60,920 nt of DNA, taken from IMG/VR virus record IMGVR_UViG_2744054872_000005. One strand, written 5' to 3'. This document shows, piece after piece, positions 10,819 to 46,808 of the stretch. This stretch comes from a virus. Lineage: Duplodnaviria; Heunggongvirae; Uroviricota; Caudoviricetes. The notes under the pieces were generated by a model, which saw only the letters and a program-made list of their open reading frames with translations, was not told the origin of the DNA and made no database searches. The position numbers and the translations under genes are program-made. Position 1 is the stretch's first letter. Every line of letters begins with the position of its first letter.

Positions 10819-10878
10819 TCCTCACGCTCCATAAACGATAAAACCGCCCGGAGGCGGTTTCACATAAAACATTTTGCA

Positions 10879-19160: not shown

Positions 19161-20186
19161 TTACGCCAGTTGTACGGACACGAACGCATCAGGGTCAGCC
19201 AGCAGCATCAGCGGTGCTGACTGAATCATGGTGAACTCACGCGCCGGATCGCCGGTAGTCACCCAGTTTTTCGGGTAGCGGGCAGAGGCGTTAATACCTT
19301 CGCGCTGTGCGTCCGCATCCTGAATGCAGCCATAGGTGCGCAGACCGCGTGCCTGAGTGTTCCCCAGCACCATCGTGTTGTCCGGCAGGAAGTTCTTTTT
19401 GACGTCGTTTTCCACGTACTGTCCGGAATACACGACGATCGCCGTATCGCCATACATCCCCTTATAGGACACCGCTTCGCCCAGGTCTTTTACCGCTGTC
19501 TCCAGCTCGGAATTAGAGCCGCGACGGGTATCCAGCTTCTCCTTGACGGCTTTGAAGGAACGGAACAGCGCCCAGCCTTTCGGATCAAACACGATGATAT
19601 TCACCACACCGCTGGCGTTCAGCGCGTAGGCTTCGATATCGTCGGTCGGGTCATACGTGGACTTGTCACGCTTGCTCCACTCCGTACCGCCGGACTGCGT
19701 GATGTTGTTCGCCACACTGCGGCCCATATCCACTTCAACCGGATCGAAGGCTTCACCGGTCATGGTATATTTGCCCTTAAGCACGGCAGAAACGGCCTGC
19801 ATCTCTTCGACCTGAGCAATGGCCAGCTCTTCGTCTCGCATGTTCTGCAGGATGATGCGACGGCGGCGGTAAGCCGGGTCCGCCAGATTCTGTGGATCTT
19901 CATCCGGCAGGCGACGCAGGGTCATCTGCGGATTCACCTCATGCTTCGGCTTGACATATCCCGGTGTAAATTCAGAGGTGGAGCCGCCACGGGAGCGGAT
20001 AACCTCACCGGAAACAATCGGCGAAACGTACAGCGCCATGTTTACCAGTCCCGGAATTTGTGAGAGATAGACTTTCTCCGTGGTGAAGGGATAGCTCTCA
20101 CGGAAAAAGAGACGCAGAAACAGCGGATCAAACTTAAATTTCTTCTCATTTGCCGCCAGCAGCTGGGCGGTTGTGTACATCGACAT
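19161..20186 (-). CDS. E: major capsid protein E
   Basis: Near-identical to lambda gpE from MSMYTTAQLLAANE. Confidence 0.97.
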   Translation of the reverse strand: MSMYTTAQLLAANEKKFKFDPLFLRLFFRESYPFTTEKVYLSQIPGLVNMALYVSPIVSGEVIRSRGGSTSEFTPGYVKPKHEVNPQMTLRRLPDEDPQNLADPAYRRRRIILQNMRDEELAIAQVEEMQAVSAVLKGKYTMTGEAFDPVEVDMGRSVANNITQSGGTEWSKRDKSTYDPTDDIEAYALNASGVVNIIVFDPKGWALFRSFKAVKEKLDTRRGSNSELETAVKDLGEAVSYKGMYGDTAIVVYSGQYVENDVKKNFLPDNTMVLGNTQARGLRTYGCIQDADAQREGINASARYPKNWVTTGDPAREFTMIQSAPLMLLADPDAFVSVQLA

Positions 20187-20241: not shown

Positions 20242-20574
20242 TTAAACGATGCTGATTGCCGTTCCGGCAAACGCGGTCCGTTTTTTCGTCTCGTCGCTGG
20301 CAGCCTCCGGCCAGAGCACATCCTCATAACGGAACGTGCCGGACTTGTAGAACGTCAGCGTGGTGCTGGTCTGGTCAGCAGCAACCGCCAGAATGCCAAC
20401 GGCAGCACCGTCGGTGGTGCCATCCCACACAACCAGCTTACGGGTGGAGGTGTCCAGCATCAGCGGGGTCATTGCAGGCGCTTTCGCACTCAATCCGCCG
20501 GGCGCGGTTGCCGTATGTGCCGGGTCACTGTTGCCCAGCGGCTGGTAATGGGTAAAGGTTTCTTTGCTCGTCAT
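20242..20574 (-). CDS. D: head decoration protein D
   Basis: Near-identical to lambda gpD from [12 protein letters not shown]. Confidence 0.97.
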
Positions 20575-20583
20575 AAACATCCC

Positions 20584-21903
20584 TTACACTGGTGTGTTCA
20601 GCAAATCGTTAACGGCATCAGATGACGGGTTACCTGCAGCCAGCGGTGCCGGTGCCCCCTGCATCAGACGATCCAGCGCAGTGTCACTGCGCGCCTGTGC
20701 ACTCTGTGGTGCAGCTGCCAGAATGCGGCGGGCCGTTTCCACGGTCATACCGGGGGGTTCGGCCAGCACGCGTGCCTGTTCTTCGCGTCCGTGAGCCTCC
20801 TCACAGTTGAGGATCCCCATAATGCGGCTGTTTTCTGCCGCAACCGCTGCGGTGATCTGCGCGTTCACATCCGGCTGCGCCGCGCTGGCGTTTTTGCCCT
20901 CCGTCGCTTGCACCACGCCAGTAACGTCAGCCTGCGAAGCAGTGGCTGAAACAGTTGTTGATTGAGTCTCTTTGGTCATTCGCCCTCCTGAGAGACGGGA
21001 TTTACGTGTATCCAGTGCATCACGCATGACGGTGATCGCATCGGTACTGTTAACAAGTTCATCAGCCAGTCCGGCATCAATGGCCTCCTGACCGCTGTAC
21101 ACTGCAGCCTCGGTATCCAGCACAGCCTGCACGGACAGGCCGGTATATGCCGATACCTTCTGTGCAAACATCCGGCGAGTTGCATCCATCCGGGACTGCA
21201 GTGTTTCCCGGACATCATCCGGTAGATGGCTGTAGGGGTTGCCATCCACCTTATGGCTGCCGCTGTAAATCAGCGTGATTTCCACGCCCTGTTTCTCCAG
21301 CGCAGCGCCGTAATTACTGTGAGCCATCATGACGCCGATGGAGCCTGTCCGGGCGGTCTGCGTGACCAGACGCCGGGAGGCGGCACTGGCAAGCAGCTGA
21401 CCTGCACTGCAGTTCATGTCGTTGGCCAGCGCCCATACCGGTTTTATGTCACGCACACGGGCGATGATGTCAGCGCAGTCAAATGCCCCCGCCACCATCC
21501 CGCCGGGCGTGTCCATATCGAGCAGAATGCCGTCCACCATCGGATCGCTGGCAGCCTGTTGCAGACGGGCGATAATGCCGTTGTAACCGGTCATCCCCGA
21601 ATGCGGCTGCAGCGCCCGCGTCCGGTTGACCAGCGTGCCGGAAACCGGCAGCACGGCGATGCCGTTCATGACCTGATAACTGCGGGCCTGTCGTGGTCCG
21701 TCATCATCACCGGATAACGCCAGCGTCGCGGGTGTCTCCGGGGCAGTCAGGCTGTCACCGGACACCGCATCTGTCAGGCGGCTGATCCCAAGCTGGCCTG
21801 CTAGCGCACAAAAGAAAACCCGCGCATAGGCGGGTTCAAGCATCAGCGGCTCATTAAAGGCCATGCTGGCAATATGCGGGAGATTACGCAGCTCTGCTGT
21901 CAC
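20584..21903 (-). CDS. C: capsid assembly protease C (with nested scaffold Nu3)
   Basis: 439 codons from a GTG start (VTAELRNLPHIASMAFNE); 20-nt overlap with the end of B as in lambda. Confidence 0.9.
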   Translation of the reverse strand: MTAELRNLPHIASMAFNEPLMLEPAYARVFFCALAGQLGISRLTDAVSGDSLTAPETPATLALSGDDDGPRQARSYQVMNGIAVLPVSGTLVNRTRALQPHSGMTGYNGIIARLQQAASDPMVDGILLDMDTPGGMVAGAFDCADIIARVRDIKPVWALANDMNCSAGQLLASAASRRLVTQTARTGSIGVMMAHSNYGAALEKQGVEITLIYSGSHKVDGNPYSHLPDDVRETLQSRMDATRRMFAQKVSAYTGLSVQAVLDTEAAVYSGQEAIDAGLADELVNSTDAITVMRDALDTRKSRLSGGRMTKETQSTTVSATASQADVTGVVQATEGKNASAAQPDVNAQITAAVAAENSRIMGILNCEEAHGREEQARVLAEPPGMTVETARRILAAAPQSAQARSDTALDRLMQGAPAPLAAGNPSSDAVNDLLNTPV

Positions 21904-22663
21904 TCTTCTCCTCCTCTGTTGATTGTCGCAGCCCGGATTCAAATGCCGCAGCCGCCCAGGCTGGCGGTTTAAGACCGGCTGCGCGGCGCTCCATCGTTTC
22001 ACGGACCTGCTGGGCAAAAATTTCCTGATAGTCGTCGCCGCGTTTTGCGCACTCTTTCTCATAGGTGCTCAGTCCGGCTTCTATCAGCATCACCGCTTCC
22101 TGTACTTCTTTCAGACCATCGATGGCCATACGACCGGAGCCTATCCAGTCACAGTTCCCCCAGGCACTGCGGGCTTCCTGAAAACTGAAGCGTGCTTTTG
22201 AAGGTAACGTCACCACGCGGCGAGCGATGGCCTCTTCCAGCCAGCACAGAAACATCTGGCTCGCCTGACGGGATGCGACGAATTTTCGCCGCCCCATAAA
22301 GTACGCCCACGACTCGTTCGCACTGGCCCGTGCCGTGGAGTAGCTCATCTGGGCGTAATTCCGGGAAAGCTGCTCATACGAGACACCCAGCCCGGCAGCG
22401 ATATACCGCAACAGTGACTGCTCAAACACGGAGTAGCCGTTATCCGTGTCCTGAGCCGTCTGCAGGTTCAGTGAGTCCCCCGGCATCAGGTGCGGCACTT
22501 TTGCGCCTCCCAGACGGACCGGTGCTGCGGCGTAATACGCGGCAATTTCACCAATCCAGCCGGTCAGCTTGTCCCGCTGCTCCTTACTGTTCGCGCCCAG
22601 AATAAAATCCATCGCTGACTGCGTATCCAGCTCACTCTCAATGGTGGCGGCATACATCGCCTT
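21884..22663 (-). pseudogene. B: portal protein B, 3' fragment (about residues 292-533), separated from its 5' part by the island
   Basis: Encodes ...KAMYAATIESELD... through the lambda gpB C-terminus; upstream of codon K the sequence is unrelated island DNA. Confidence 0.9.
22656..22663. repeat. left copy of 8-bp direct repeat ATCGCCTT (island attL core or target duplication)
   Basis: Identical octamer at 33480-33487; removing the island and one copy rebuilds an uninterrupted gpB reading frame ...SAIVKAMYAAT.... Confidence 0.85.
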
Positions 22664-22736
22664 TATGAAAAGACAGGAAAAAATAAAATTTAAAAACAGT
22701 ACATTACGAATGCTCAGACCTATCGTTTAAAGGAGT

Positions 22737-22758
22737 CGCAATACACACTGCAATACAC
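22737..22758 (+). repeat. two direct copies of GCAATACAC (candidate integrase arm-type sites, attL side)
   Basis: tcGCAATACACacTGCAATACACg; same motif three times at 33298-33350. Confidence 0.6.
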
Positions 22759-23694
22759 GATTATTTATAAGATGAGCGGCATCCGTCATAAAGCTGGTGG
22801 ATGCTTTTTCTATGCATATATGCACAGTTTTAGTGGGCGTTAATGTCGATATAGGGATCCCCATATCGAGATTGGATACCTGGCTTTTTTCCGGTTAACC
22901 TTTAATCAGGCTGGTGGGCTTTACCTGTTTTGTATGAGTGGTCATCATGACCATGTCATAACAAAAACCCCATATTCGTGGTTTTTCTGTGTCGGGGCTA
23001 TTCTGCTGTTGCCGTGCTGGTGGATATTCTCCGGTATGCGACTCCCCATATCGGCATCAGGCCCACCAGCGTGAAGCGTTTTTCATTTTTCGCGGGTATA
23101 AAAAATCGATGGGGCTGGCAGTCCGGAAGACGTCAGGTCACAGGGATTTGACCCGCCCCTCCCTGTGCATGAGCACAATAAGTAACCGAAGGCGGAATTC
23201 CGCCCTCGGTACTCACATATGAGAAACGATATTTCTTCCACAGATACCCTTTATTTGGGTATCGCGAGTAAGCCCCAAAATCTGGGTGTTACTCTTACTA
23301 CCCAAACTACGGGTAGTTTCCGTAGTTTCATGGTCGAGTTGCAGATCTGCAACTCACCCACCCGCCAACCCATTTTTGGGCCGTCGGGAATATCAACAAG
23401 TTAGCACAGAAATAACTCAGGCAGATACAAAACTCAACTTTGAGCTTTGCTTATTATTCAGTTGGTTAACATCCCTCAAAACTGAGGACTGTACCCAAAG
23501 CTATTTTTATAGCTCCGGCCTCAGCCGTTGGCTGTTCCCGAAAATATCAGTCAGTTACGTTAACCGCTAATTTCTGCCTTTGGTGTGAATACTGTCGCTT
23601 TAACCTACGGTAATTGTTCTGCCTCGGTGCGTGTCACCGCCGTAACCGCGCCAGTAAACCCCACAGATTCGTGGTTTTCCTGAATATCAGGAAT

Positions 23695-23979
23695 CTACCG
23701 CCGCAACCGTTCCGGTTTCTTCCACTGGTAAGTATTTTTCGCGCTCTCCCTCCGTTGTTGAGAACGGCGACGGTATGCCAGCAACTCAAGGACTCTGATC
23801 CGTATGTCGCGCATATCCACGCCGTTAAGCTCGATACCGTCACGGCGCATCATCTCAGCCACCACACGCGCGTAATTTTCGGCTATCACGCTGTCCGGCT
23901 GCGTGGCCTCCTGTTTGCTTGATGGTTGTTTGATTCCGGTAACGCGGCGGATTAATCCCAGCAATTCAGATTCTGTCAT
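23695..23979 (-). CDS. hypothetical protein (94 aa), last gene of island, 11 nt downstream of the TerS-like gene
   Basis: Charged, helical-looking ORF tightly coupled to the TerS-like gene; no recognisable domain. Confidence 0.45.
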   Translation of the reverse strand: MTESELLGLIRRVTGIKQPSSKQEATQPDSVIAENYARVVAEMMRRDGIELNGVDMRDIRIRVLELLAYRRRSQQRRESAKNTYQWKKPERLRR

Positions 23980-23990
23980 AGTGCGCTACG

Positions 23991-24542
23991 TTACTTGTCT
24001 TTATTCGGCTGCAACTTATCCGGCACATTTCCGGTAGTTTCCATCAGGTAATCAGCCAGTATCTGCGGGAGGTTGTCGTCAACTCCGGCACTGGCATTAC
24101 AGGCTTTAGCCACTTCCTTTTTAAGTCCATCCAGCATAGCCGGAGTCATCTGTGGGAAGCGCCTTTGCATGGTAAGCGGCAGGCTGTCCATGATAGATGA
24201 AATCTGACTCGCCAGTTTGGAAAGAACATACATACAAAACTCTGTATCAATAACGTCGCCGCGTTCGCGCTCGTTTTTAAGCTCCTGCGCTTCTGCCTGT
24301 GCTGTCAGTAATCTGATCCTGACGCGTAAAAGTTCATCGTCATCAATATCGCCCGTTTCGTTTGTAATCTGGCTAATTGCATTGTTAACCCGATTATCTA
24401 TTACACTGGCAACATCATAGAATGCCTCACGGCCCTTACGCTCGACGGGAATCACTCCCCACTTATCAAACGCAGTGGCGCTTACACGGCAACTTTTTGC
24501 CATGTTTTTTTTGTTCATCAGGTGCAATTTCATTGATACCAC
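23991..24542 (-). CDS. small terminase subunit homologue (lambda Nu1-like) encoded by the island
   Basis: 183 aa; C-terminal region aligns by eye with lambda Nu1 (e.g. LTAQAEAQELKNERERGDVIDTEFCMYVLSKLASQISSIMDSLPLTMQRRFP vs LTRAQADAQELKNARDSAEVVETAFCTFVLSRIAGEIASILDGIPLSVQRRFP); N-terminal wHTH region is divergent. Confidence 0.8.
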   Translation of the reverse strand: MVSMKLHLMNKKNMAKSCRVSATAFDKWGVIPVERKGREAFYDVASVIDNRVNNAISQITNETGDIDDDELLRVRIRLLTAQAEAQELKNERERGDVIDTEFCMYVLSKLASQISSIMDSLPLTMQRRFPQMTPAMLDGLKKEVAKACNASAGVDDNLPQILADYLMETTGNVPDKLQPNKDK

Positions 24543-24644
24543 AACTTAATTACTGTTTCAGGTTGGTGTATTGATTGTATTTTTCTCTTCTTATTCATAG
24601 AGATAGAGCGAACAACAAAACCACCACCAGCACCCGAAAAAGGC

Positions 24645-24710
24645 TCATAAATAGCGAAAACCCGCGAGGTCGCCGCCCCGTAACCTGTCGGATCGCCGGA
24701 AAGGACCCGC
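24645..24710 (-). other. island cos site: 66-bp exact copy of helper cosN and flanking sequence (cosN GGGCGGCGACCT at 24667-24678, minus strand)
   Basis: Identical to 37110-37175; sequence toward the island TerS gene (cosB side) is unrelated to the helper cosB. Confidence 0.85.
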
Positions 24711-24734
24711 CAGCCAGAACGGGCCCTAATTTCA

Positions 24735-25118
24735 TCAACCAATCAACTTATAGCGACCATCCCGTGCATTGCGACGTACACGCTCAATCTTGAGGCATAG
24801 CGCCGCACCTGGCTTTTTTGGGACAGGTACGCGGCAATATTCAGAAGCGCGAGGAATATTATTTATCCAGTCGATCACTTCACTTAAATACCAGGCCTTA
24901 CGCCCTTCCGTAACCTGCACTCGCTCCGGGAACTCTCCACTAGCCTCAAGGTTTAGCAGTGTACGCCGACTCAGGGTTGTAATTTCCATCACCTGATTCA
25001 TATCAACAAGGCGCTCGCTTAAACACATTTTGTCAGCGATAGCTTTTAATTCCTCTACAGCTGGATTCGGGTACATCATTTCGGCAATTGGCTTAAGGTC
25101 ATTGTAATCATTCTGCAT
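24735..25118 (-). CDS. AlpA-family HTH protein (second copy, 127 aa) in the island morphogenesis module
   Basis: C-terminal MEITTLSRRTLLNLEASGEFPERVQVTEGRKAWYLSEVIDWI resembles the AlpA/phage regulatory HTH. Confidence 0.55.
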   Translation of the reverse strand: MQNDYNDLKPIAEMMYPNPAVEELKAIADKMCLSERLVDMNQVMEITTLSRRTLLNLEASGEFPERVQVTEGRKAWYLSEVIDWINNIPRASEYCRVPVPKKPGAALCLKIERVRRNARDGRYKLIG

Positions 25119-25129
25119 TGTATCCCCCT

Positions 25130-25459
25130 TTACACACGAGCCAGCGGCTGAACAGAAATACCTGAGCCAACAAACGCTGCAACCTTTACTGACAGTTCTT
25201 TAACAGACTCAGGCCAGTTCAGAGCATCAACATTTAAGACACCTGTCTTATAGACCTGAGCCTGTGTTTTTTTCGCGGTGTCGATTTGTACAGCGGAAAC
25301 ATAAACCGCTTTACCTACGCTCGAACCATCCCATACCACCAGTGCACCATGCATCAGTGGCGTAAATGCAGGAATTACCCCTTTATTAGCTGAAAATATC
25401 CCCAACGTAGTAACCAGTGCTTCAGTGCCAGCCATGAGTTCAGTGTAATGAGTAGCCAT
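25130..25459 (-). CDS. head decoration protein homologue (lambda gpD-like), island-encoded
   Basis: 109 aa; shares TPLM, VWDG and C-terminal AF.G..IS motifs with gpD. Confidence 0.7.
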   Translation of the reverse strand: MATHYTELMAGTEALVTTLGIFSANKGVIPAFTPLMHGALVVWDGSSVGKAVYVSAVQIDTAKKTQAQVYKTGVLNVDALNWPESVKELSVKVAAFVGSGISVQPLARV

Positions 25460-25468
25460 TGCTCCCCC

Positions 25469-26515
25469 TTAACCAATGCGAACGGTAACAAAACGATTGA
25501 TGCGGGCCGGTATTGGCTGTGGTGCAGAGTGCGTTTGTACGTACTCAATAGCCGGATCTCCAGGCACAATGTAGTTTTTCGGTGCGAGTTCGGCTTTAGT
25601 CAGCCCCATTCGGATTAGCTCCGGATCCTGAATACCGCCATAAGCGACAATCCCCTGAAGAGCCGTATTGCCAAGCACCATCAAATCAGGATCAAGGAAA
25701 TGTTTTTCAGTTCCGTCCTCGTCGGTATAACGCCCGCTGTATACAACAATCGCAACATCGCCCATATACCCTTTAAAACTCACCGAATCACCAAGGTCTT
25801 TAAGGGCCGTTTCCAGTTCGGAATTAGAACCACGGCGGGTATCCAGAGCCTCTTTTATCGCTCTGAATGAACGGTATTTCTTCCATACATTACCGCCCAT
25901 AATGATGATATTAGTGACGCCCTCACTAAATTCTGCGTAGCTCTCAATATCATCATTTGGATCAAAAGTTTCTTTATCCTTACCTGACCACTCAGCACCG
26001 CCAGACTGAGTGATGATATTTTGTGGTTTAATATTCCAGTCCAGTTCATAACGTTCAATACCATCGCCTTCAATGATATTTTTCCCCGTTGTGATTGCCT
26101 GAACAGCAAGCCATTCAATACGTGCACGTATAGCTTTAGCCTGATTTACAATCGCCTGTTTAACTTTAATATTACGCGCCCCAAAAGCATTGTATTGTTC
26201 AGGTGATACACCAGCAGGGCGCACAGCTAACTTATTTGGATCAATGCTGCTTTTCGGTTTCATATAGCCAGGGCGAATTGTTTTTGATTCGTATCCCTCA
26301 TCTCGTGAAACTTTACTGCCCACCATAGGAGAGCAAAACGCCGCGATCGGGATATTTGGATCGTCGATCGTATCAAGAATAATGTCTCTCGATTCAAACA
26401 TTACCGAGCGAGTGAAAAACAAACTGGTAAACAACGCATTTAATTTTTTTTGCACATCTTCAGCATTAGCCACCTGCACAAGCTGTGTAGGCGAATATAA
26501 ATCAACCATACTCAT
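25469..26515 (-). CDS. major capsid protein homologue (lambda gpE-like), island-encoded
   Basis: Clear collinear similarity to gpE (TQSGGAEWSGKDKETFDPNDDIESYA, ...AIKEALDTRRGSNSELETALKDLGDSVSFKGYMGDVAIVVYSG); start chosen at MSMVDLYSPTQL with AAGAGG RBS. Confidence 0.85.
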   Translation of the reverse strand: MSMVDLYSPTQLVQVANAEDVQKKLNALFTSLFFTRSVMFESRDIILDTIDDPNIPIAAFCSPMVGSKVSRDEGYESKTIRPGYMKPKSSIDPNKLAVRPAGVSPEQYNAFGARNIKVKQAIVNQAKAIRARIEWLAVQAITTGKNIIEGDGIERYELDWNIKPQNIITQSGGAEWSGKDKETFDPNDDIESYAEFSEGVTNIIIMGGNVWKKYRSFRAIKEALDTRRGSNSELETALKDLGDSVSFKGYMGDVAIVVYSGRYTDEDGTEKHFLDPDLMVLGNTALQGIVAYGGIQDPELIRMGLTKAELAPKNYIVPGDPAIEYVQTHSAPQPIPARINRFVTVRIG

Positions 26516-26726
26516 CCTCTTTACATTCATTACAAATAATTGTGAATATATTCTATTACCGATGTCTGCTATGCGAATACATGCAACCAAGTGCAATGTT
26601 GTATAAAATCTGCCGTGACAACTTCAGTGCTGATAATTCGTGTTAATGTATTTACTTCCTTTGGTCGGGATTTATGTAGCATGCCGGAAAATCTATTTTC
26701 TTCCGGCATTTTTTTATTTGCAGAAT

Positions 26727-27149
26727 TTAAAACGGTATATTATCGCCGTACGGATCATCATTCCCCGACTGTTGTTTTGCCCTGTTCAGTGCGTCAGTAG
26801 CCTGGCCCTGTTGACCTTTTTTGCCGCCCGGTCGCGCCGTTCTGGCACTGATTACACTGTCTGCGATAACCTGCCAGCACTGCCGCGTTTCGCCGTTCTG
26901 GCCTGTCCACTGGCTTACCTGCATGTTACCCGCCACGCTCACCAGTTCGCCTTTGTGGTGTTTTGCCAGTGCGTCGGCCTGTCTGCCAAACGCCAGGACG
27001 GATAACCACATCGTCGCCGTTCCGTCATCTGCCTGGCTGCACGGAAGTGGGACCGCCATACTCGCCATCGTCATTTGTGTACCCTTGCTGGTGGTCTTTA
27101 ACTGCGGGTCAGCCACCAGCCGCCCGTAAGCCGCTATCTGTGCTGTCAT
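26727..27149 (-). CDS. ssb: single-stranded DNA-binding protein (SSB-like)
   Basis: OB-fold-like N-terminus, Gly/Gln-rich linker and acidic C-terminal tail ending DNIPF (compare SSB DDDIPF). Confidence 0.55.
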   Translation of the reverse strand: MTAQIAAYGRLVADPQLKTTSKGTQMTMASMAVPLPCSQADDGTATMWLSVLAFGRQADALAKHHKGELVSVAGNMQVSQWTGQNGETRQCWQVIADSVISARTARPGGKKGQQGQATDALNRAKQQSGNDDPYGDNIPF

Positions 27150-27391
27150 GCTGTCTGCTCTCCGGTTTTAACGTTGATGGTTGTCACCTGTTCCGCTTCG
27201 GCAATCTCCCGTTCTGTCAGCGTGGCAAAGTTTGCAGCTGCCGTTGTCATGAATGCGCTAATCAGTTCGGGATGTGCTTTCGCATATCCTTCCCCGGCGT
27301 TGCGGTCGATGATTTTTATCGACACCCTTAACCAGTGTTCCGTCAAATCAAGGGCGTGCGATTGTGATTTTTTTGTGTGCTTCGCTGTCAT
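27146..27391 (-). CDS. hypothetical protein (81 aa)
   Basis: ORF between the iteron region and ssb with overlapping stop/start. Confidence 0.4.
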   Translation of the reverse strand: MTAKHTKKSQSHALDLTEHWLRVSIKIIDRNAGEGYAKAHPELISAFMTTAAANFATLTEREIAEAEQVTTINVKTGEQTA

Positions 27392-27442
27392 AGGCTTTAT
27401 CTCACAGCAGTAAATTAAAATTTTTGCGTTTTAACCCTTCAC

Positions 27443-27664
27443 CTGTTCACCTTTTGATATTTTATCTTTTAATTCATAATGTTAAGGGGTGAACAGTTTC
27501 ACAAAAACTATTCACCAACTGTTCACCACTGTTCACCCTTGAAGCTCAATAAACAATCAAAAAGGTGAACAGTGAATAGTTTGGTGAACAGTTCATAAAT
27601 AACTGTTCACCCTATAACATACTGATACAAAAGATATTTATGACAGGGTGAACAGTGGTGAACA
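27443..27664. repeat. iteron cluster: at least 9 copies of GGTGAACAG / CTGTTCACC in both orientations (candidate island replication origin)
   Basis: Copies at about 27443, 27488, 27519, 27529, 27564, 27584, 27603, 27647 and 27656 in an AT-rich stretch just 3' of the primase gene. Confidence 0.75.
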
Positions 27665-27678
27665 GTTATTCCATAAGT

Positions 27679-29511
27679 TTAATTTTTGCTATCGTCATTA
27701 GTGACCGATACACATGATGGCATCCAGTCTTCTGATTCCTCCGTCAGTGTCACGTTTGAACGCAAACCGTGCTTCGTTTTCCGTTTCATATACTCCCTGC
27801 CATATTCCGCCATTGCCCCCGGCATATCTTTACCGAAGCGCGTCAGTGTTACAGGTTTACCAAACCCATGTGCCCTCATATAAGCCAGATAGGCATGATA
27901 GAGATACCTGCGTGGGCTGAATGGCACAATTTCAGCATTACCCACTAACAGGCCATCACACATTACCGACGCCATGAGATAGCCGCAGAAGTCCACCAGC
28001 GAATCCCCCTCTCGCTTTATCGCCAGTGCTTCTTCAGATTTCTGCTGCTCATATAACAGGCGTCTGGCTTCGTCCTGGTCAGCAAACCGTGTAAGCAGAT
28101 GGCGAATCACTACCGCCAGCTCACCTTCTATTTTTTCCGCCAGCATTGGATCGCGTTCGTTCTCCGGTACAACTTCCGAAAAATTGAATATCACCCGACG
28201 ACGTGAGATCCCCCCGCTGCGGTCACTGAATGACATGGCGTTATTGTTAACCGCCAGCACTACTGCCGGAATACGCGTTGAGTAGGGGGCTTTGTGTTTC
28301 GGGTCAATTGCCACCTTGTCACCGCCTGTAATAGCCTTAATCCCTGCCCCATCACCAGCGTAGCGGGTCATATCCGGCATGATAATCAGCGAAAAGCCAA
28401 CCACTAACGCGCGTTCCCTTGCATCTTCCAGCGCCTTCATGCTTGCCGATACTGTGTTGGCCTTACCCGCCAGCATGGTGCAAATCTCCGCCATCACGCT
28501 TTTACCACTTCCCCCTGGACCTGTTACCTCAATGAATAACTGCCAGTCGTACCGGTTCGCCAGCACCATGAATAATGCAGCCAGTACGCGATCCGCCTTG
28601 CGGTCATTCTCAGCCACCGAACGGCGTAACCACTTCCAGAAATTCGGCGCATGTGTTGCCAGCGTTTCCCCCTCTGCTGGTGGGCTGAAAGGTAATTCAC
28701 TGGCAATTAACAACCAGTCGTTTTTGTTATGCTCCCGAAAATTACCTGTTCTGGTATCAAATACCCCGTTACTGAATCCAATCAGGTTACGGGCTGTATT
28801 CCCCATAACAGGCAAACTTAACTTCATGGTATCGACCGCCGATTTAATGGCGTTCTGCGAATAGCTGATCTCCGCATCAATGAAAATCTGCGCCATAGCT
28901 CGCTGTAATTCTTTATCCTGTACTGGCTCCCATACAACGCCGTTGTAATGGTGAACAGTGTCAGAGTCAGCATGAATCGCCAGTTCACCGCCATAATGTG
29001 CCAGGAGAACTTCGCCGCGTTGACTTGCTCCCATCTGGTTAAGCGCCAGTGATGAAGCGTTATCGTCTTTTACCCGCTCTTTTTTCTTTACAGGCAGTTC
29101 AACTACCTTTTTCTTTTCCGCCTGCTCTGCCCGTTCACGTTCCAGATATTCGCGCCAGTTCTCCCGTTTCTGGCTGTGCATTCCTTCAGGATAATAATCA
29201 GCATCCCTGACACCTGCCGCTGCCAGTTTCTGCCCGATGGTATTAACAAGCCCCGGACGCAATAACCCCGCCTGATAGAGACGCACGCGATAGCGTCCGT
29301 CCGGTACGATTTGCAGGTTGTCCAGTTCGGCAAGTTGTTGCTCTCCAAGCCAGACAGGTGGCACGTTATCGCCAGCCAGTCGCCCGTCCTGTTCCTGCCA
29401 CTGATTCGCATGTGCCCACGCATCACTACCCGCAAAAATGATGACTTCCGTCATTTTGTCACGCGGCTGGTATTTTAAATTTGGCGCTTTTTTCATTTCT
29501 GCTCTCTCCAC
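27679..29511 (-). CDS. primase/replication initiation protein (P4 alpha or PICI Pri-Rep-like) with P-loop NTPase domain
   Basis: 610 aa; Walker A GPGGSGKS; placement next to int-alpA and directly upstream of the iterons. Confidence 0.75.
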   Translation of the reverse strand: MERAEMKKAPNLKYQPRDKMTEVIIFAGSDAWAHANQWQEQDGRLAGDNVPPVWLGEQQLAELDNLQIVPDGRYRVRLYQAGLLRPGLVNTIGQKLAAAGVRDADYYPEGMHSQKRENWREYLERERAEQAEKKKVVELPVKKKERVKDDNASSLALNQMGASQRGEVLLAHYGGELAIHADSDTVHHYNGVVWEPVQDKELQRAMAQIFIDAEISYSQNAIKSAVDTMKLSLPVMGNTARNLIGFSNGVFDTRTGNFREHNKNDWLLIASELPFSPPAEGETLATHAPNFWKWLRRSVAENDRKADRVLAALFMVLANRYDWQLFIEVTGPGGSGKSVMAEICTMLAGKANTVSASMKALEDARERALVVGFSLIIMPDMTRYAGDGAGIKAITGGDKVAIDPKHKAPYSTRIPAVVLAVNNNAMSFSDRSGGISRRRVIFNFSEVVPENERDPMLAEKIEGELAVVIRHLLTRFADQDEARRLLYEQQKSEEALAIKREGDSLVDFCGYLMASVMCDGLLVGNAEIVPFSPRRYLYHAYLAYMRAHGFGKPVTLTRFGKDMPGAMAEYGREYMKRKTKHGLRSNVTLTEESEDWMPSCVSVTNDDSKN

Positions 29512-29792
29512 GCGGCAATCATATTTTTCAGTTCCTGTAGTTTTTTATCCACATCCACACGTGACACATGGTTATTTCTGGAAGTCGGGATTTTCCGCCG
29601 GAATCTGCAAATAAAGATCTCCACGTTCAGCGAACTAAGAAATGAATAGCCATCACGGATAAAATACACACGGTCAAACATCAGTTCTTTTACCGTTACT
29701 CTGTTACCGTTCTTATCCAGATAAATAGCGCCGGGGATAATTTGGGGGTGTGCATAACCGCTGGCAGTCAAGCCAGATAAATACGTTCTCAT
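29493..29792 (-). CDS. hypothetical protein (99 aa)
   Basis: Overlaps primase start by 19 nt; no recognisable domain. Confidence 0.45.
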   Translation of the reverse strand: MRTYLSGLTASGYAHPQIIPGAIYLDKNGNRVTVKELMFDRVYFIRDGYSFLSSLNVEIFICRFRRKIPTSRNNHVSRVDVDKKLQELKNMIAAWREQK

Positions 29793-29798
29793 GATTAT

Positions 29799-30119
29799 TT
29801 ATCCCCGATTTGAATCAGTATTCGCTTTCTTTATAGCATTTAATGCATCTGTGGCATTTTCAATGGTGCACCGTAACGAAATATCAAAATGTCCAAGCAT
29901 TGCCAGTAACAAACCGATATTACCCATATCAATGCGCATGGCCTTTTCGTCATATTCCTCATTTTCTGACGCATGCCACATCAGGCTACCAATTGACGCA
30001 ACAGCCATTGATATATTGTCAGTAGCCCCATCCGCAGCGGAATAAACCTTTTTAGCAATATCATGCTCACAGTTAAAATGCGGATTAATCAGGTACTGGT
30101 AATTTGACATATCAGGCAT
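29799..30119 (-). CDS. hypothetical protein (about 106 aa from MPDMSNYQ)
   Basis: Internal ATG at 30119 has AGGGGG 8 nt upstream; the listed ORF extends upstream to 30236 through the operator region. Confidence 0.4.
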   Translation of the reverse strand: MPDMSNYQYLINPHFNCEHDIAKKVYSAADGATDNISMAVASIGSLMWHASENEEYDEKAMRIDMGNIGLLLAMLGHFDISLRCTIENATDALNAIKKANTDSNRG

Positions 30120-30404
30120 GGCACACCCCCTGGCGAATACGGGCGGCGAATACAGCAACACAACCGGACGGGCAGCGGTTACGCGCTTCACGTTCCGTCC
30201 AGGCGGTGACGTGGATGATTTGAGATTCTCCGGCACTCAGTGCCAGAAAACGCCACACAAAGGCCGTTTGTGTGTGTACAAGGTGTGGGGTATGCTGTCT
30301 TACAGCCATAATCGTTACTCCAGTTAACGGTTTGGTTAGAAGCCCCGTTACTGCTCCAACAGTGCGGGGCTTCGTCGTTTCAATTGCTGAATTGCATGTA
30401 TCAG

Positions 30405-30475
30405 CCCTTGTGGTATTCAGATTACATTTTGGTGAATACCATTTCAAGTCTTTTTTGGTATTCACTTTTGTATTA
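30405..30475. promoter_or_regulatory. divergent promoter/operator region with three GGTATTCA / TGAATACC repeats
   Basis: tggtattcag, tggtgaatacc and tggtattcac between the divergent replication operon and the DUF3950-like gene. Confidence 0.55.
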
Positions 30476-30508
30476 CACTGCATCCCGTTATTAATCGGAG
30501 GTGCAAAC

Positions 30509-30814
30509 ATGTCCACGAGTTCTGTTAACAATAAATCACAGCAACTGAATGCCAGATTTCCACATGAAGTAGTGAGTGGCATTGAGGCATCCCTACAGCC
30601 AGGGGAAACTAAAGCGAATTTTATAGTTACGGCTGTACGCGGTGAGATCGCCAGCCGCCAAGCAGAAGGCAGCGGAGAAAATCCCCTTGTGTCGTCACTG
30701 GATGCCCTGGCTAAGGTCGAACAAATCGGCATCAAAGCCGCCGAGGAGATCGGGCAACTCATCACCGTCGCGCGTGAAGAACTCCAGCGACGCAAGGTCA
30801 AAGAGCATGAATAG
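30509..30814 (+). CDS. DUF3950/YlcI-like putative DNA-binding protein (101 aa), candidate island regulator
   Basis: GGAGGTG RBS; N-terminus MSTSSVNNKSQQLNARFPHEVVSGIEASLQPGETKANF aligns with the helper YlcI MSTKNRTRRTTTRNIRFPNPMIEQINIALDQKGSGNF. Confidence 0.55.
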   Translation: MSTSSVNNKSQQLNARFPHEVVSGIEASLQPGETKANFIVTAVRGEIASRQAEGSGENPLVSSLDALAKVEQIGIKAAEEIGQLITVAREELQRRKVKEHE

Positions 30815-30871
30815 CCAATATCAGCGCCATAGTTTGAGGAACGCAGGCGCATTGCTTTACAGGACAGCACC

Positions 30872-31051
30872 ATGAGCGACACAGAATCAACCAAAACACC
30901 ATCACCAACTCGTAAGAGACGACGCAAAAATATAGCGCATGAACATGAATCAGAAAGATTCGCACCTTGTTCGTTTGCTCTTGAGAAATTCCTTAAAGAG
31001 CACAGGAAAAAGCTCTCGTTGCAAACCTTGGAACGAACCAAATCTGACTGA
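30872..31051 (+). CDS. hypothetical small basic protein (59 aa)
   Basis: ORF downstream of the DUF3950-like gene, followed by two terminator hairpins; below the 60-aa cut-off of the ORF track. Confidence 0.3.
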   Translation: MSDTESTKTPSPTRKRRRKNIAHEHESERFAPCSFALEKFLKEHRKKLSLQTLERTKSD

Positions 31052-31118
31052 TCACATTGCCCACCAGCCGCAAATGTGGCATTGTTGGTGATGCGTTCAA
31101 GTTTAGTGTGTATCCATT

Positions 31119-31148
31119 GGCGACCGCCCCCGGTCGCCTTTGTTTTGT
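31119..31148 (+). terminator. rho-independent terminator (first of two)
   Basis: ggcgaccg-ccccc-ggtcgcc followed by tttgttttg. Confidence 0.6.
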
Positions 31149-31724
31149 CACTGAATGCGGTTACCAAAGTAAAACTCAGGCTGATATTCACGTATCAGCC
31201 TTTTTTCTTCTTCCTCCAGCTCACGCTTTTTGCGCTTACATGCCTGTAGCTCCCTCCCCTTCTCGCTGGCACTTATTTGATATTGCTCTTTACGGCGGGA
31301 AAAATCCTGTAATGCACCCCACGGGATACCATAAGCCCCCGTTTTTCTGATACCTGGTATCACATTTCTGAATACCCAGTTACTGAAACGATGGGCGAAC
31401 GTGCCAGGAGTAACAGCTTTCCGACTTCTGGCGATTAGTTTGTAGAACCCTGACTCGCATACCGTTCGCATTGTTTGATTTCCACCTGGGGTGGGTATTA
31501 CACTCCCCCTTTTCATCATCATCGAGACGGCGTAACGCAACCTTGTGATCAACAATTTCCAGCGCAGCGCACACGTCAACGGCAACAAACCACGGATCGC
31601 CGTTCACATACACCACGCGAACGCTCACACCATCAAAGCGCAGAACGACCAGATCACGAATATCACAGAATTTTTTCACTGGACGAGCGTACCCCTTGCC
31701 CGTCACGGCAATATTTTTATTCAT
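31148..31724 (-). pseudogene. Bro-N domain (antirepressor-like) gene interrupted by a +1 frameshift in a G5/C5 run
   Basis: ORFs 31380-31724 and 31148-31588 together read ...PWFVAVDVCAALE...DDDEKG // SVIPTPGGNQTMRTVCESGFYKLI...NVIPGIRKTGAY; frame change at ccccc 31504-31508. Confidence 0.65.
31178..31207 (+). terminator. rho-independent terminator (second of two)
   Basis: aggctgata-ttcacg-tatcagcct followed by ttttttt. Confidence 0.6.
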
Positions 31725-31778
31725 CGCGTTTTACCCTATAGACAAAAACCCCTCGTGATGAGGGGCGTTATTTACTGG

Positions 31779-32036
31779 TTATTGCTGTGTTGTTTTTCCA
31801 GGTTTCCATCCAGGATGCCACTCACCACGGATCCATGCCTGAACCTCTGAAAGTCGATACCCTGCAGCACGTTCACCGATCTTGATACGTCGCGGGAATT
31901 TACCTGCCTGCTCCATTTTCCAGCGTGTTGAGTTTGCCAGCGTGGTAAGTGCTATGCACTCTTTTTCACGAATGAACCGATCAATGTCCTTCATTGTGCG
32001 CAAATCGTTTTCATCAACAAGAGAATAAATTGCCAT
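31779..32036 (-). CDS. alpA: AlpA-family transcriptional regulator/excisionase
   Basis: 85 aa HTH ...GKFPRRIKIGERAAGYRLSEVQAWI; immediately downstream of int. Confidence 0.8.
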   Translation of the reverse strand: MAIYSLVDENDLRTMKDIDRFIREKECIALTTLANSTRWKMEQAGKFPRRIKIGERAAGYRLSEVQAWIRGEWHPGWKPGKTTQQ

Positions 32037-32037
32037 A

Positions 32038-33279
32038 TCACACCACCTCTTTATTAAGCTCGATAACGTTGTTGTTAAATCCTGCTATCGTATTAAGGTA
32101 ATTAACCCACATATTAAGCACCTCAAGTTTTTTCTTTATATGCCTGCTTTTATTGTAAACACCAGCAACCCCTTTCACTTTATGACCTAAAAGAAGTTCG
32201 ACAATATAAGGATCCGCCCCCATATCATTAAGCGTAGTGGAAAATGTGCGCCTGAAATCATGTATGCACCACAAGCCATTAGTATCATGACCAAGACGCC
32301 TGCATATTCTGTTTGCAGCCCCTGTTATTGTCGCCCTTTGCAAAGCACAACCGACAACATAACCGCGATTTTTTGTTTCTGCGTAAAGATTAACGATCCA
32401 TTGTTTTATTCCGTCAGGAACAGGCCTTACTATAGCCTCCTTGTTTTTGCTGTGCTCTTTTGGGACTGTCCATACCCAGTTTTTTAAATCCCATTCGTCC
32501 CAGGTGGATAGCCTCGCCTCCTGCTGTCGGCAACCAAACACCAGGCAGATAACCATTATTCTTCGGTTATATATTGATGACAGAGTTAGCAAATTATTAC
32601 CGTAAGCATAAGACCATACATCAGCGGTTTCATTGATATTAAGAACGCGATCCCTTATACCGGATGAGCGCCCGACATAACTTACGTTAATATCTCCAAA
32701 GGGATCGCACGCGATGTATTGCCTGACGCGACAAAAACGCAACGCCTGTTTGATATCAAGAAAAATTGCACCAGACATAACAGGCGCATTTTTTTTGATC
32801 CTGTCAAAGACGGTAAGCCATGTGTGTAATTTGCACTGTTCTATAGCCATATCACCGATATAGGGGAAGATATGCTTTTCAAATCGTTTTATTAAATATT
32901 CATGCTCTTTTCTGGCTGTTGTGGCGTGATTATCGTACCAGTAAAACAGCGCATCCCTTACGGTCACTGGTTGCATGGTTTTTTCGGCAGCAAGTTTTAT
33001 TTGCCTGCGTGGGTCCAGATTTTCAGCCAGCCATTCACGGCACTGATCACGCATGCGCCTGGCTGTTGCAAGAGACATATCAGGATAGCGCCCAAGTGTA
33101 AGCCATACCGGAGGGGATTCCCTGCCACCAAGACGATAGTAAAAAACAAAGCTGATCCCCCCAACCATGCTTACACGCACAGACAACCCGCGCCCATCCG
33201 CTATTGTTTTTTGTTTGTCCTGCCGTTTTCCGACAAGACTCTTTAACAGTTTGTCACTGAGTTTGTTTTCAATAGCCAT
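32038..33279 (-). CDS. int: tyrosine integrase (P4-type)
   Basis: 413 aa; N-terminal arm-binding-type domain and C-terminal catalytic region (HDFRRTF...LLGHK...Y); adjacent to the island right junction. Confidence 0.9.
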   Translation of the reverse strand: MAIENKLSDKLLKSLVGKRQDKQKTIADGRGLSVRVSMVGGISFVFYYRLGGRESPPVWLTLGRYPDMSLATARRMRDQCREWLAENLDPRRQIKLAAEKTMQPVTVRDALFYWYDNHATTARKEHEYLIKRFEKHIFPYIGDMAIEQCKLHTWLTVFDRIKKNAPVMSGAIFLDIKQALRFCRVRQYIACDPFGDINVSYVGRSSGIRDRVLNINETADVWSYAYGNNLLTLSSIYNRRIMVICLVFGCRQQEARLSTWDEWDLKNWVWTVPKEHSKNKEAIVRPVPDGIKQWIVNLYAETKNRGYVVGCALQRATITGAANRICRRLGHDTNGLWCIHDFRRTFSTTLNDMGADPYIVELLLGHKVKGVAGVYNKSRHIKKKLEVLNMWVNYLNTIAGFNNNVIELNKEVV

Positions 33280-33297
33280 TAAAAGCCCTCAAGAGAT

Positions 33298-33350
33298 TTG
33301 CAATACACACCCATCCCGATCGCCAATTTGCAATACACATTGCAATACAC
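33298..33350 (+). repeat. three direct copies of TGCAATACAC (candidate arm-type sites, int side)
   Basis: tTGCAATACACac ... tTGCAATACACat-TGCAATACACaa, between int and the junction. Confidence 0.6.
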
Positions 33351-33479
33351 AAAACCGCGAAAAACTGGAAGAGTGATGAACGGTCATCAAAAGTATGGAA
33401 AACGACATTCCAGACGCAGCAAGGGTTTCAGTGGAGTTGGCGAACGATGCGGGCAACTACGGTGAGATGATAGACATAA

Positions 33480-36408
<2,929 letters not shown>

Positions 36409-36434
<26 letters not shown>

Positions 36435-37109: not shown

Positions 37110-37175
37110 TCATAAATAGCGAAAACCCGCGAGGTCGCCGCCCCGTAACCTGTCGGATCGCCGGAAAGGACCCGC
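37110..37175 (-). other. helper prophage cos region (cosN GGGCGGCGACCT at 37132-37143, minus strand), cosB toward Nu1
   Basis: Matches the lambda cohesive-end sequence and flanks by recall; 178 nt upstream of Nu1. Confidence 0.9.
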
Positions 37176-46797: not shown

Positions 46798-46808
46798 AGG
46801 GAGGTTAT

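Follow-up and report, generated by a model that had tools for sequence, protein, structure and literature searches.

EcCICFT073, the model Gram-negative PICI and a chromosomal one, carries a capsid gene, c1499, and a decoration gene, c1500 (Fillol-Salom 2018, PMC6092414). Deleting c1499 or c1500 left its transfer and interference unchanged, and its packaged DNA was all phage-sized (Fillol-Salom 2018, PMC6092414). Its packaging factor, RppA (144 aa), hijacks the phage TerS (Fillol-Salom 2019 Mol Cell, PMC6739421). Of the 29 reference PICIs, 21 have a capsid gene, and helper-embedded PICIs (HE-PICIs) have two doubled tgTGTATTGCantgTGTATTGCa motifs, located 81 and 132 bp (+/- 2) from the attP centre (Tommasini 2023, PMC10111431). 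Literature searches on the function of PICI capsid and decoration genes, or on HE-PICIs, found nothing beyond these papers of 2018, 2019 and 2023.

More distant systems are also instructive. The Gram-positive island SaPIbov5 is cos-packaged and encodes Ccm, a homologue of the helper major capsid protein (23% identity) which redirects phi12 capsid assembly. Ccm has no decoration partner, the helper capsid protein is also required and small capsids have been demonstrated, a phenotype not seen for EcCICFT073. PmCI172 of Pasteurella, a Gram-negative PICI with a Mu-like helper, encodes a major capsid protein homologue and makes small capsids as observed by electron microscopy; the gene responsible was never identified. 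P4, a satellite of ~11 kb, has an integrase of the P4 type, a D5-like primase and the cos of its P2-type helper. It uses the Sid scaffold and brings its own decoration protein, Psu. Finally, the capsid-forming PICIs (cf-PICIs) encode their own capsid protein together with all other head and packaging proteins, so that the helper contributes nothing but tails (Alqurainy et al., bioRxiv 10.1101/2022.09.08.507074).

The window analysed here, the whole 60,920-nucleotide stretch of IMG/VR record IMGVR_UViG_2744054872_000005, contains a complete Qin-like lambdoid helper prophage of ~48.8 kb with int, xis, Q, lysis, head and tail genes. An island sits inside its portal gene B, with the helper Nu1, A, W, C, D and E genes directly flanking. 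The N-terminal part of the portal gene lies at 33488..34309 (Pfam Phage_portal_2 positions 3-242) and the C-terminal part at 21884..22655 (profile positions 238-354), both on the minus strand. Also on the minus strand are the intact helper major capsid gene E (19161..20186; Pfam 7.4e-70 and RefSeq annotation of an identical prophage), the intact decoration gene D (20242..20574; Pfam scan and RefSeq annotation), the S49 protease gene C with its nested scaffold (20584..21903; RefSeq annotation), the large terminase gene A (34509..36434; RefSeq annotation) and the small terminase gene Nu1 (36409..36954; Pfam 6e-100). The key island genes are all co-oriented with this late operon.

The island occupies 22656..33487 on the minus strand and is bounded by two copies of an 8-bp att identity block, as read from the junction sequences: ATCGCCTT (AAGGCGAT on the minus strand) at the distal junction, 22656..22663, and again at the int-proximal junction, 33480..33487. 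The unit length between the two copies of the core is 10,824 bp, in agreement with the 10.8 kb given in a preliminary description of this DNA. The block AAGGCGAT at both junctions is the published 'aaggcgat' for site B:Phage_portal_2:241 (Tommasini 2023, PMC10111431), and in silico excision at this core rebuilt a 533-aa portal ORF. Counting of the HE-PICI motif found the doubled form GCAATACACnnnGCAATACAC, the reverse complement of tgTGTATTGCantgTGTATTGCa, at 22738..22758 and a second doubled copy on the int side of attP at 33330..33350, with an extra single copy at 33300-33308. The 9-mer occurs seven times in the window against 0.5 expected, and the near edges of the doubled motifs lie ~78 and 134 bp away from the centres of the cores.

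Over its full length the island is 99.9% identical to elements in CP032892, CP048025 and CP047002. The first of these, CP032892.1/2404963-2415798, is Eco5118.11.B_Phage_portal_2_241 in SuppFile1 of Tommasini 2023 (PMC10111431), and it shares the lambdoid-portal insertion point, the orientation, the AAGGCGAT block, the doubled TGTATTGC motif and the length of ~10.8 kb; a 12-bp deletion in the decoration gene is found only in the window copy. The helper in CP032892 is labelled 'proP' (Tommasini 2023, PMC10111431), and that in the near-identical genome CP048025 is at the ydfJ/rspB (Qin) locus. Judged by its sequence, the island is evidently an already catalogued HE-PICI of the EcCICFT073 kind at site B:Phage_portal_2:241. 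It has the layout described for Gram-negative PICIs (Fillol-Salom 2018), with int and alpA at one end, a primase/replication module and a length within 10-20 kb. No tail or lysis genes were found among the island proteins by Pfam, PHROGs or RefSeq annotation. Pairwise comparison of its integrase with those of E-site islands gave 52-53% identity.

The int end comprises the tyrosine integrase gene (32038..33279; Arm-DNA-bind_3 and Phage_integrase) and alpA, encoding the excisionase/regulator (31779..32036; Pfam Phage_AlpA 5.4e-14). Next to these is a Bro-N gene (31148..31724) which is frameshifted in the window copy, where two overlapping ORFs hold its N and C parts; RefSeq flags it as 'frameshifted' in a 99.9% identical copy and it is intact in L002. 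A primase-helicase (27679..29511; D5_N / DUF5906 / Pox_D5) and an SSB (26727..27149; Pfam SSB 4.5e-16) follow. The late zone includes a second AlpA-type HTH protein of 127 aa (24735..25118; Pfam Phage_AlpA 7.6e-9; phrog_2790) and ends with a 94-aa protein of unknown function (23695..23979; phrog_1561). All these genes are on the minus strand. Some PICIs have been reported with C4/isrK-type immunity RNAs; when the whole window was scanned against Rfam at gathering thresholds there was no hit inside the island, so that RNAs of this type were not seen there at that threshold.

The preliminary description had recognised a lambda gpE-like and a gpD-like protein, and both identifications hold; the two ORFs are on the minus strand of this late zone. 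The major capsid gene of the gpE family is at 25469..26515. Its length had been given as 349 aa; the ORF is 348 aa from the ATG at 26515. Shine-Dalgarno spacing favours the ATG at 26509, giving 346 aa, which is also the RefSeq start in near-identical genomes, and this is probably the true start. The protein matches Pfam Phage_cap_E (PF03864) at 3.8e-41 and 141.7 bits (cut-off 22.9) over profile positions 4-327 of 329. It also matches the solved lambda gpE 7VI9 full-length (4e-77, residues 7-347) and, again full-length, PDB 3BQW, the CFT073 'putative capsid protein of prophage' (1e-121). The adjacent decoration gene of the gpD/SHP family, 25130..25459, encodes 109 aa matching Pfam HDPD (PF02924) at 5.4e-13 and 49.5 bits (cut-off 29.1) and the structures of phage 21 SHP, 1TD0 (1.2e-11), and lambda gpD (3e-9). 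Because these matches to solved gpE, 3BQW and gpD/SHP are full-length, the folds can be taken as settled; on capsid size, models of single chains have no bearing. Island E is a gpE-family protein, and from purifying selection on it we infer that it may assemble into an icosahedral shell.

Good Shine-Dalgarno sites precede the island E, D and second AlpA-type genes. A promoter and terminator consensus scan over 22600-27700 gave counts at or below shuffled expectation and nothing usable on expression of the pair.

Comparison with EcCICFT073 shows a common order, int-alpA, then the primase, then capsid-decoration-X-cosN-packaging factor and a last gene of 93 or 94 aa. Island E is 55% identical to c1499, island D is 54% identical to c1500 and the 94-aa protein shares 69% identity with its positional counterpart of 93 aa. 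Both elements use a lambdoid helper, and both have a cosN identical to that of lambda without the phage cosB. The differences are that EcCICFT073 is chromosomal whereas the island is helper-embedded, that an unrelated 137-aa protein lies between D and cos in EcCICFT073 where the island has the AlpA-type protein, and that the packaging factor of the island is a TerS of full-length Nu1 type which does not resemble RppA. A late zone of this content is standard for Gram-negative PICIs and no novelty, with c1499/c1500 and the capsid genes of the reference PICIs as precedents.

The TerS gene, 23991..24542 on the minus strand, occupies the position of rppA (Pfam Phage_Nu1 1.1e-24; phrog_57) and encodes 180 aa from the ATG at 24533 or 183 aa from the GTG at 24542. 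The 183-aa protein was considered as an RppA and rejected: there is no BLASTP match to CFT073 RppA, nothing relevant was found in the PDB and the protein is a Nu1 homologue. Neither was any RppA, RppB or RppC homologue found beside the island cos in these searches (BLASTP vs RppA, PDB), as Rpp-type redirection would involve. The protein is 37% identical to the helper Nu1 over the full length, with the C-terminal half conserved, and its closest phage relative is N15 gp1 (48%). The island cos site is a 77-bp stretch, 24634..24710 on the minus strand, 95% identical to that of the helper and including an identical run of 66 nt. Within it the cosN 12-mer GGGCGGCGACCT at 24667-24678 is exactly that of the helper at 37132..37143 on the same strand, while the downstream region equivalent to cosB has diverged and is not common to island and helper.

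Of the island proteins covered by a Pfam and PHROGs scan, only the capsid, the decoration and the 183-aa Nu1-like protein belong to head or packaging families. No portal, protease/scaffold, connector or TerL was found among the island proteins by Pfam, PHROGs or RefSeq annotation, and the 15 island genes that RefSeq annotates in the 99.9% identical copy include none for a portal, a protease or TerL. The earlier statement that E, D and the TerS-like gene are the only morphogenesis genes on the island was therefore borne out. The island differs from the cf-PICIs in having no portal, protease/scaffold, connectors or TerL of its own. With P4 it has in common a size of about 11 kb, a P4-type integrase, a D5-like primase and the possession of the helper cos. 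It differs from P4 in using a shell subunit with a lambdoid helper rather than Sid with a P2-type helper; no P4-type Sid, Psu or Delta appeared among the Pfam and PHROGs hits of the scanned island proteins. To place its gene content between the P4-type satellites and the capsid-forming PICIs, as had been done, is a fair description.

The preliminary description went on to propose that the pair redirects capsid size. Island E, with D, would build or nucleate shells of reduced size, T=4 or T=3, on the helper portal and scaffold; these would take up island DNA as single units or dimers and shut out the 48.8-kb helper genome, in the manner of SaPIbov5 Ccm. By that description's own measure the proposal fails for the closest characterised relative, in which the DNA was all phage-sized and c1499/c1500 were dispensable, the mutants having no transfer or interference phenotype. 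The small unit had also been offered as support. Four units of 10.824 kb come to 43.3 kb, however, which is ~89% of the ~48.8-kb helper. Lambda packages ~78-105% of its genome length and a four-unit concatemer fits this range. Because cos concatemers can be packaged as multimers in this way, the small unit size does not discriminate between the models. In T=4 to T=7 systems the usual ratio is one-third, to which 10.8 kb, ~22% of the helper genome, is a poorer fit, and no scaffold-type size determinant is present among the island genes. In favour of the proposal, a capsid homologue does redirect size in SaPIbov5, and such a homologue is also encoded by PmCI172, which forms small capsids. Islands at the portal site cluster tightly at 10.80-10.90 kb despite mosaic gene content, and the island lineage, unlike EcCICFT073, has its own TerS and cosB. 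Small heads were also reportedly obtained by Katsura in 1983 from lambda carrying point mutations in gene E. Taking these points together, size redirection by the island pair is unsupported by the present comparisons and we consider it improbable.

Island E is 41% and island D 38% identical to the resident prophage proteins, and the GC content of the island pair is ~46% against ~57% for helper E. Given these identities, the GC gap and the distinct clade in which the island proteins fall, a recent capture of the pair from the resident helper was ruled out. The best match to island E in 50,697 phage records is only 41.8% identical, and homologues of E fall into a satellite group, which includes c1499, and a lambda-type group. 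The satellite-group members sampled were all in PICI contexts, at fis, portal or capsid-gene sites. The decoration gene adjoins the capsid gene in nine of nine contexts seen, and the second AlpA-type protein is found beside the pair, at 64-68% identity, in Kluyvera, Superficieibacter, Cedecea and Kosakonia. In complete E. coli genomes the module was found in 397 of 5,426 (~7%). A search for related loci in species-representative genomes gave four loci, which served for synteny and dN/dS and not as a census.

For island E, dN/dS is 0.01 within E. coli (dN 0.001, dS 0.125) and 0.03-0.07 between genera where dS could be estimated; elsewhere between genera pN is ~0.07-0.11 with synonymous sites saturated. 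For the D-like gene dN/dS is 0.03-0.12. From these comparisons the pair evidently belongs to a satellite-only capsid lineage under strong purifying selection. The idea that the pair is cargo without a role, left over from phage head genes that were captured and are now decaying, could draw on the lack of phenotype of c1499/c1500 and on the 12-bp deletion private to the window copy. That deletion is in frame, removing four residues, and the ORFs of E and D are full-length in all contexts examined; low dN/dS together with saturated synonymous divergence between genera contradicts decay already. We give this idea hardly any credence.

It has been suggested, for islands inserted in gene E, that captured late genes act as a backup copy (Tommasini 2023, PMC10111431), replacing the helper gene interrupted by the satellite until excision. 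The capsid gene E is the most frequent HE-PICI site (Tommasini 2023, PMC10111431), and the Cedecea and Kosakonia relatives are islands which interrupt the helper E gene and carry the same E/D module. Here, though, the interrupted gene is the portal gene and the island has no portal gene, and the same module is also carried by EcCICFT073 and by PICIs inserted at fis in the chromosome. The lineage is moreover old and distinct from any helper E, and is thus not a recent capture. A backup role is very unlikely for this island.

The N-terminal two-thirds of island E is only 18-33% identical to helper E, so that island E may not be able to nucleate on the helper portal and scaffold, and a central patch is 50-72% identical. 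A chimera joining the island E and helper E genes also exists in metagenome ERZ28600228, either a real recombinant or a product of assembly. Membership of the same family, the conserved central patch and the chimera, which suggests that the two genes can be joined, would all suit a role in interference, with island E and D as dominant-negative subunits which co-assemble into helper capsids, or those of rival lambdoid phages, and spoil them; the host population would be protected and the satellite favoured, and PICIs in general do interfere with their helpers. In EcCICFT073, however, deletion of c1499 or c1500 did not relieve interference with lambda, which maps there to Rpp. A poison subunit has no obvious need of a co-conserved decoration protein, nor would it need to be under purifying selection along its full length to the degree seen for a true capsid protein. 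Interference by the pair is thus an unlikely explanation. The gpD protein binds only expanded, DNA-filled lambda shells. Given this specificity and the retention of the decoration gene with the capsid gene in every context seen, a shell role is indicated rather than a poison.

On balance we lean towards the interpretation that the island is an HE-PICI whose E and D proteins are working shell and cement subunits of phage-sized heads and not a size-redirection device; the structural role is one that we infer from conservation and from the pairing of the capsid gene with a decoration gene. On induction of the helper the composite would excise and late transcription would read into the island. Int and AlpA would then excise the island, repairing the portal gene, and the island would replicate using its own primase and SSB. 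The island TerS may bind the island cosB and recruit the helper gpA to cut cosN, so that concatemers of about four units (43.3 kb) could be packaged into lambda-type heads. Island E and D, alone or mixed with helper gpE, would assemble on the helper portal and protease/scaffold into phage-sized heads. The pair would then be the satellite's own capsid supply, redundant with helper gpE/gpD in laboratory transfer assays. The window copy itself may be impaired, given the frameshift in Bro-N and the loss of four residues from the D-like protein. The behaviour of EcCICFT073 may also not transfer to the island because the proteins are only 54-55% identical and Rpp is used there instead of TerS.

The finding as such matters little, since the literature already covers the element, the site where it is inserted and the occurrence of capsid/decoration pairs in islands of this kind. 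What is new for this island is the satellite-only lineage, the purifying selection, the helper cosN beside its own TerS and the four-unit fit. The puzzle is that a capsid and cement pair of satellite lineage is retained under selection comparable in strength to that on a genuine phage capsid, and occurs in about 7% of complete E. coli genomes, although no phenotype was seen in the only knock-outs made. To ask what the pair is for, a helper-embedded island that encodes its own small terminase offers a reasonable system, candidate purposes being helper range, capsid supply and particle composition. There is a small chance that in the TerS-bearing lineage E and D build a shell of their own, smaller or composed of satellite subunits only, on the helper portal and protease/scaffold. 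If so, island particles would be physically distinct from helper virions and the island would be a satellite with partial autonomy in its capsid, at a stage between the scaffold-only pirates and the capsid-forming PICIs.

The island interrupts the portal gene of its helper, a point absent from the preliminary description. On the minus strand, from high to low coordinates, helper Nu1 (36409-36954), A (34509-36434) and W (34306-34512) are followed by the first ~286 codons of a lambda-family portal gene (Pfam profile positions 3-242), then by the island and, beyond it, by the remainder of the portal gene (profile positions 238-354), the S49 protease gene C, D (20242-20574) and E (19161-20186). 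An 8-bp block, AAGGCGAT, is common to both junctions, reading ATCGCCTT on the plus strand at 22656-22663 and 33480-33487, and in-silico removal of one 10,824-bp unit gives an uninterrupted 533-aa portal. Going by the annotation of the 99.9% identical CP048025, the prophage around the island lies between ydfJ and rspB and is a complete lambdoid phage, Qin-like: it has integrase, excisionase and Q, the lysis genes and the full set of head and tail genes, and measures ~48.8 kb once the island is subtracted. The same annotation shows, in the helper early region, a stretch of cargo genes of apparently non-phage type (~45600-51850: MFS transporter, gamma-glutamylcyclotransferase, LysR regulator, DUF2254 and BCCT transporter genes). 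The helper RNA features, found at 41619-41876, 44872-45046, 56114-56165, 40732-40922 and 3059-3257, comprise tRNA-Arg(TCT), a CAT-anticodon tRNA (tRNA-Ile in RefSeq), sok antitoxin RNA beside hokD, DicF and the sRNA STnc100; an IS009 RNA match lies near the tail-fibre end.

Helper-embedded islands (HE-PICIs) were described by Tommasini, Mageeney and Williams in 2023 (PMC10111431), who assigned 491 to 14 sites, with 97% lying in genes A, B, C and E. Their site B:Phage_portal_2:241 carries the identity block 'aaggcgat', and their Supplementary File 1 lists Eco5118.11.B_Phage_portal_2_241 at CP032892.1/2404963-2415798. The best match to the island and its flanks is NZ_CP032892.1, 99.9% identical over the whole of both. 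The doubled motif specific to HE-PICIs, tgTGTATTGCantgTGTATTGCa, occurs in reverse complement at 22738-22758 and again at 33330-33350, with distances from the att core close to those published (PMC10111431). The island is thus an already catalogued element and not a new one. The capsid gene is also a known feature, as Gram-negative PICIs 'most often' carry one (21 of 29 reference PICIs), and such genes are not required for transfer (PMC10111431). Novelty of a capsid-bearing island is therefore not supported.

In the direction of transcription the island begins with integrase, AlpA and a frameshifted Bro-N gene, followed by a YlcI/YnfO-family gene on the opposite strand, an Icd-like gene, a 106-aa hypothetical and DUF4222. 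Genes for a D5-type primase-helicase, an 81-aa protein and SSB come next, and the late zone holds capsid, decoration, a second AlpA-type protein (AlpA2, 127 aa), cos, a full-length Nu1-type small terminase and a 94-aa protein. Besides the capsid, decoration and TerS-like proteins, no island protein belongs to a head or packaging family, so that the preliminary description was right to call these the sole morphogenesis genes and to note that portal, protease/scaffold and large terminase are lacking. The Bro-N gene (31148-31724) is split by a frameshift, flagged by RefSeq in the 99.9% identical copy as well, and is intact in a 95% identical E. coli island; regulation or induction of the window copy may be compromised as a result. 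The distal ~1 kb (22664-23694) has no annotated gene. A GC-rich hairpin with an 11-bp stem at 23185-23210 (minus strand) possibly marks the end of the late transcript.

The island capsid gene (25469-26515, minus strand) encodes 348 aa from the ATG at 26515; an alternative ATG at 26509, giving 346 aa, has a better-spaced AGAGG ribosome-binding site and is the RefSeq start in near-identical genomes. The protein spans the whole Pfam Phage_cap_E profile (3.8e-41) and matches solved lambda gpE (7VI9, 4e-77, residues 7-347) and PDB 3BQW (1e-121), a structural-genomics entry named 'putative capsid protein of prophage' with a sequence alignment like that of c1499, the capsid protein of the E. coli CFT073 island EcCICFT073. 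The decoration gene (25130-25459, minus strand, 109 aa) gives matches to Pfam HDPD (5.4e-13) and, among solved structures, to the phage 21 and lambda decoration proteins (1e-11 to 3e-9). These matches, together with the strong Shine-Dalgarno sequences preceding both genes, confirm the gpE and gpD homologies proposed earlier. The window decoration gene lacks 12 bp in frame at 25349-25351 (QEDAT to H), flanked by the short repeat ATGCA, in a loop that is also variable relative to lambda gpD. All other copies seen encode 113 aa (111 in CFT073), including near-identical ones in CP032892, CP048025 and CP047002 (99.9% island matches).

The late zone of EcCICFT073 has the same order: capsid, decoration, a 137-aa protein, cosN, the packaging factor RppA (144 aa) and a 93-aa protein. 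Identities to the window island are 55% for capsid, 54% for decoration and 69% for the last gene, whereas between decoration and cos the unrelated 137-aa protein stands in place of AlpA2. AlpA2 (24735-25118), an HTH protein, is kept with the capsid and decoration pair at 64-68% in four other genera, even where there is no Nu1-like gene, and may regulate the late zone or bind the cos region.

Could the pair be a decaying remnant, or a recent capture from the resident helper? Between the window and the 95% identical E. coli island the capsid gene has dN 0.001 and dS 0.125 (dN/dS 0.01). For the islands of Kluyvera, Superficieibacter, Cedecea and Kosakonia, the comparison gives saturation at synonymous sites and a pN of 0.07-0.11; where dS can be estimated, dN/dS between genera is 0.03-0.07, and that of the decoration gene is 0.03-0.12. 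Judged by these ratios, the pair is under strong purifying selection. Among 50,697 phage genome records no capsid exceeds 60% identity to island E, the best match being lambda-type at 41.8%. Full-length homologues in a large protein collection form two groups, 46 sequences with the window protein and c1499 and 64 with helper E. All lineage members placed in context lie in PICIs, at differing sites: the portal gene (window and Edwardsiella), capsid gene E (Cedecea and Kosakonia) and fis (Lelliottia and Serratia), while the EcCICFT073 module adjoins phoQ. On this grouping the island capsid pair is a satellite lineage. The two genes sit side by side in each of the nine contexts seen, the module occurs in 397 of 5,426 complete E. 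coli genomes (at least 80% nucleotide identity), and GC is ~46% in island genes vs ~57% in the helper E region. Taken together, selection, lineage, pairing, spread and GC rule out both a decaying remnant and a recent helper capture. The PICI at fis in Lelliottia sp. SL45 (same capsid lineage, 52% identity) adds to capsid and decoration its own gpC-like S49 protease of 447 aa (10409-11752 of its locus), which brings it one step nearer to a complete head module.

Between island E and helper E, identity is 18-33% in the N-terminal two-thirds and 50-72% in a central patch (…LDTRRGSNSELETA.KDLG…; 25740-25874 vs 19429-19563), where island E is closer to lambda-type E than to c1499. The pattern points to ancient gene conversion or to a motif under strong constraint. 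A metagenome scaffold (ENA ERZ28600228 scaffold_2787, 2801-3829) holds a 342-aa chimeric capsid gene, its N-terminal ~230 residues helper-type (95-100% to window helper E) and its C-terminal ~110 residues 100% identical to island E. It is preceded by a portal gene without interruption, by C and by helper D; the D-like gene of the island and AlpA2 come after it. That patch, the sole one where both E genes resemble each other (73.5% at the nucleotide level, with exact runs of at most ~12 nt), contains the crossover; the chimera is a true recombinant of helper and satellite, or else an assembly error.

The rppA position of EcCICFT073 is filled in the window island by a 180-183-aa Nu1-type protein with no detectable similarity to RppA. 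It matches Pfam Phage_Nu1 and terminase-small-subunit families of PHROG, is nearest among phage proteins to N15 gp1 (48%), and is 37% identical to helper Nu1 over the full length, C-terminal part included. In lambda it is this part of Nu1 that contacts gpA. The exact lambda cosN 12-mer lies directly upstream of the island TerS gene, in a 66-nt block identical to helper cos. Beyond the block the sequences diverge and helper cosB is therefore absent from the island. The simplest reading is that helper gpA would cut the common cosN while island TerS would read an island-specific cosB. Homologues of terS were noted earlier in some Gram-negative PICIs (PMC6092414). The window island has one cosN; EcCICFT073, in which two cosN sequences have been remarked upon in print, has two exact 12-mers in opposite orientation on either side of rppA (2559 and 3309 of its locus).

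Since the island has no portal, protease or scaffold, any shell of island E and D would have to be built on helper gpB and gpC/Nu3. Proteins of the gpD type bind solely expanded, DNA-filled lambda shells. This property, and the constant retention of the decoration gene alongside the capsid gene, speak for a function of the pair in mature heads and against one as an assembly poison. The experimental data come from EcCICFT073 (Fillol-Salom 2018, PMC6092414), in which c1499 is the capsid and c1500 the head decoration gene. Deletion of either left lambda interference unchanged and transfer likewise (3.8e3 and 8.7e3 transductants/ml for c1499 and c1500 vs 8e3 for the parent), and the authors reported no phenotype for c1499. 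With lambda as helper, the DNA packaged was all of phage size, 'ruling out' a redirection of capsid size (PMC6092414), a result restated in the review by Dokland 2019. The preliminary description had proposed that the island pair yields smaller capsids. The window lineage is unlike EcCICFT073 in packaging factor and embedding, which leaves such a role a small probability, but nothing in the sequence points to it: the island has no scaffold-like size determinant, and its unit is ~22% of the helper genome instead of the usual third. The dispensable genes and phage-sized DNA of the relative also speak against it. Size redirection is thus improbable. Nor does the small unit lend it support. Four units packaged together would come to 43.3 kb, 89% of the helper length, within the lambda packaging range of ~78-105% of genome length, and so would fit a full head; the tight 10.80-10.90-kb island sizes at this site are equally expected under four-unit packaging. 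Similar skipping of cos sites was proposed for EcCICFT073 (PMC6092414). The earlier interpretation is thus right on gene content, with neither novelty nor size redirection supported. Given that the sole experimental data, from a relative, are phage-sized DNA and genes that are not required, we favour full-size lambda-type heads in which island subunits would be an alternative or admixed supply, redundant with helper gpE and gpD in standard assays. The puzzle that remains, already noted in the literature, is why satellites retain a capsid and cement pair that is strongly conserved yet shows no phenotype.
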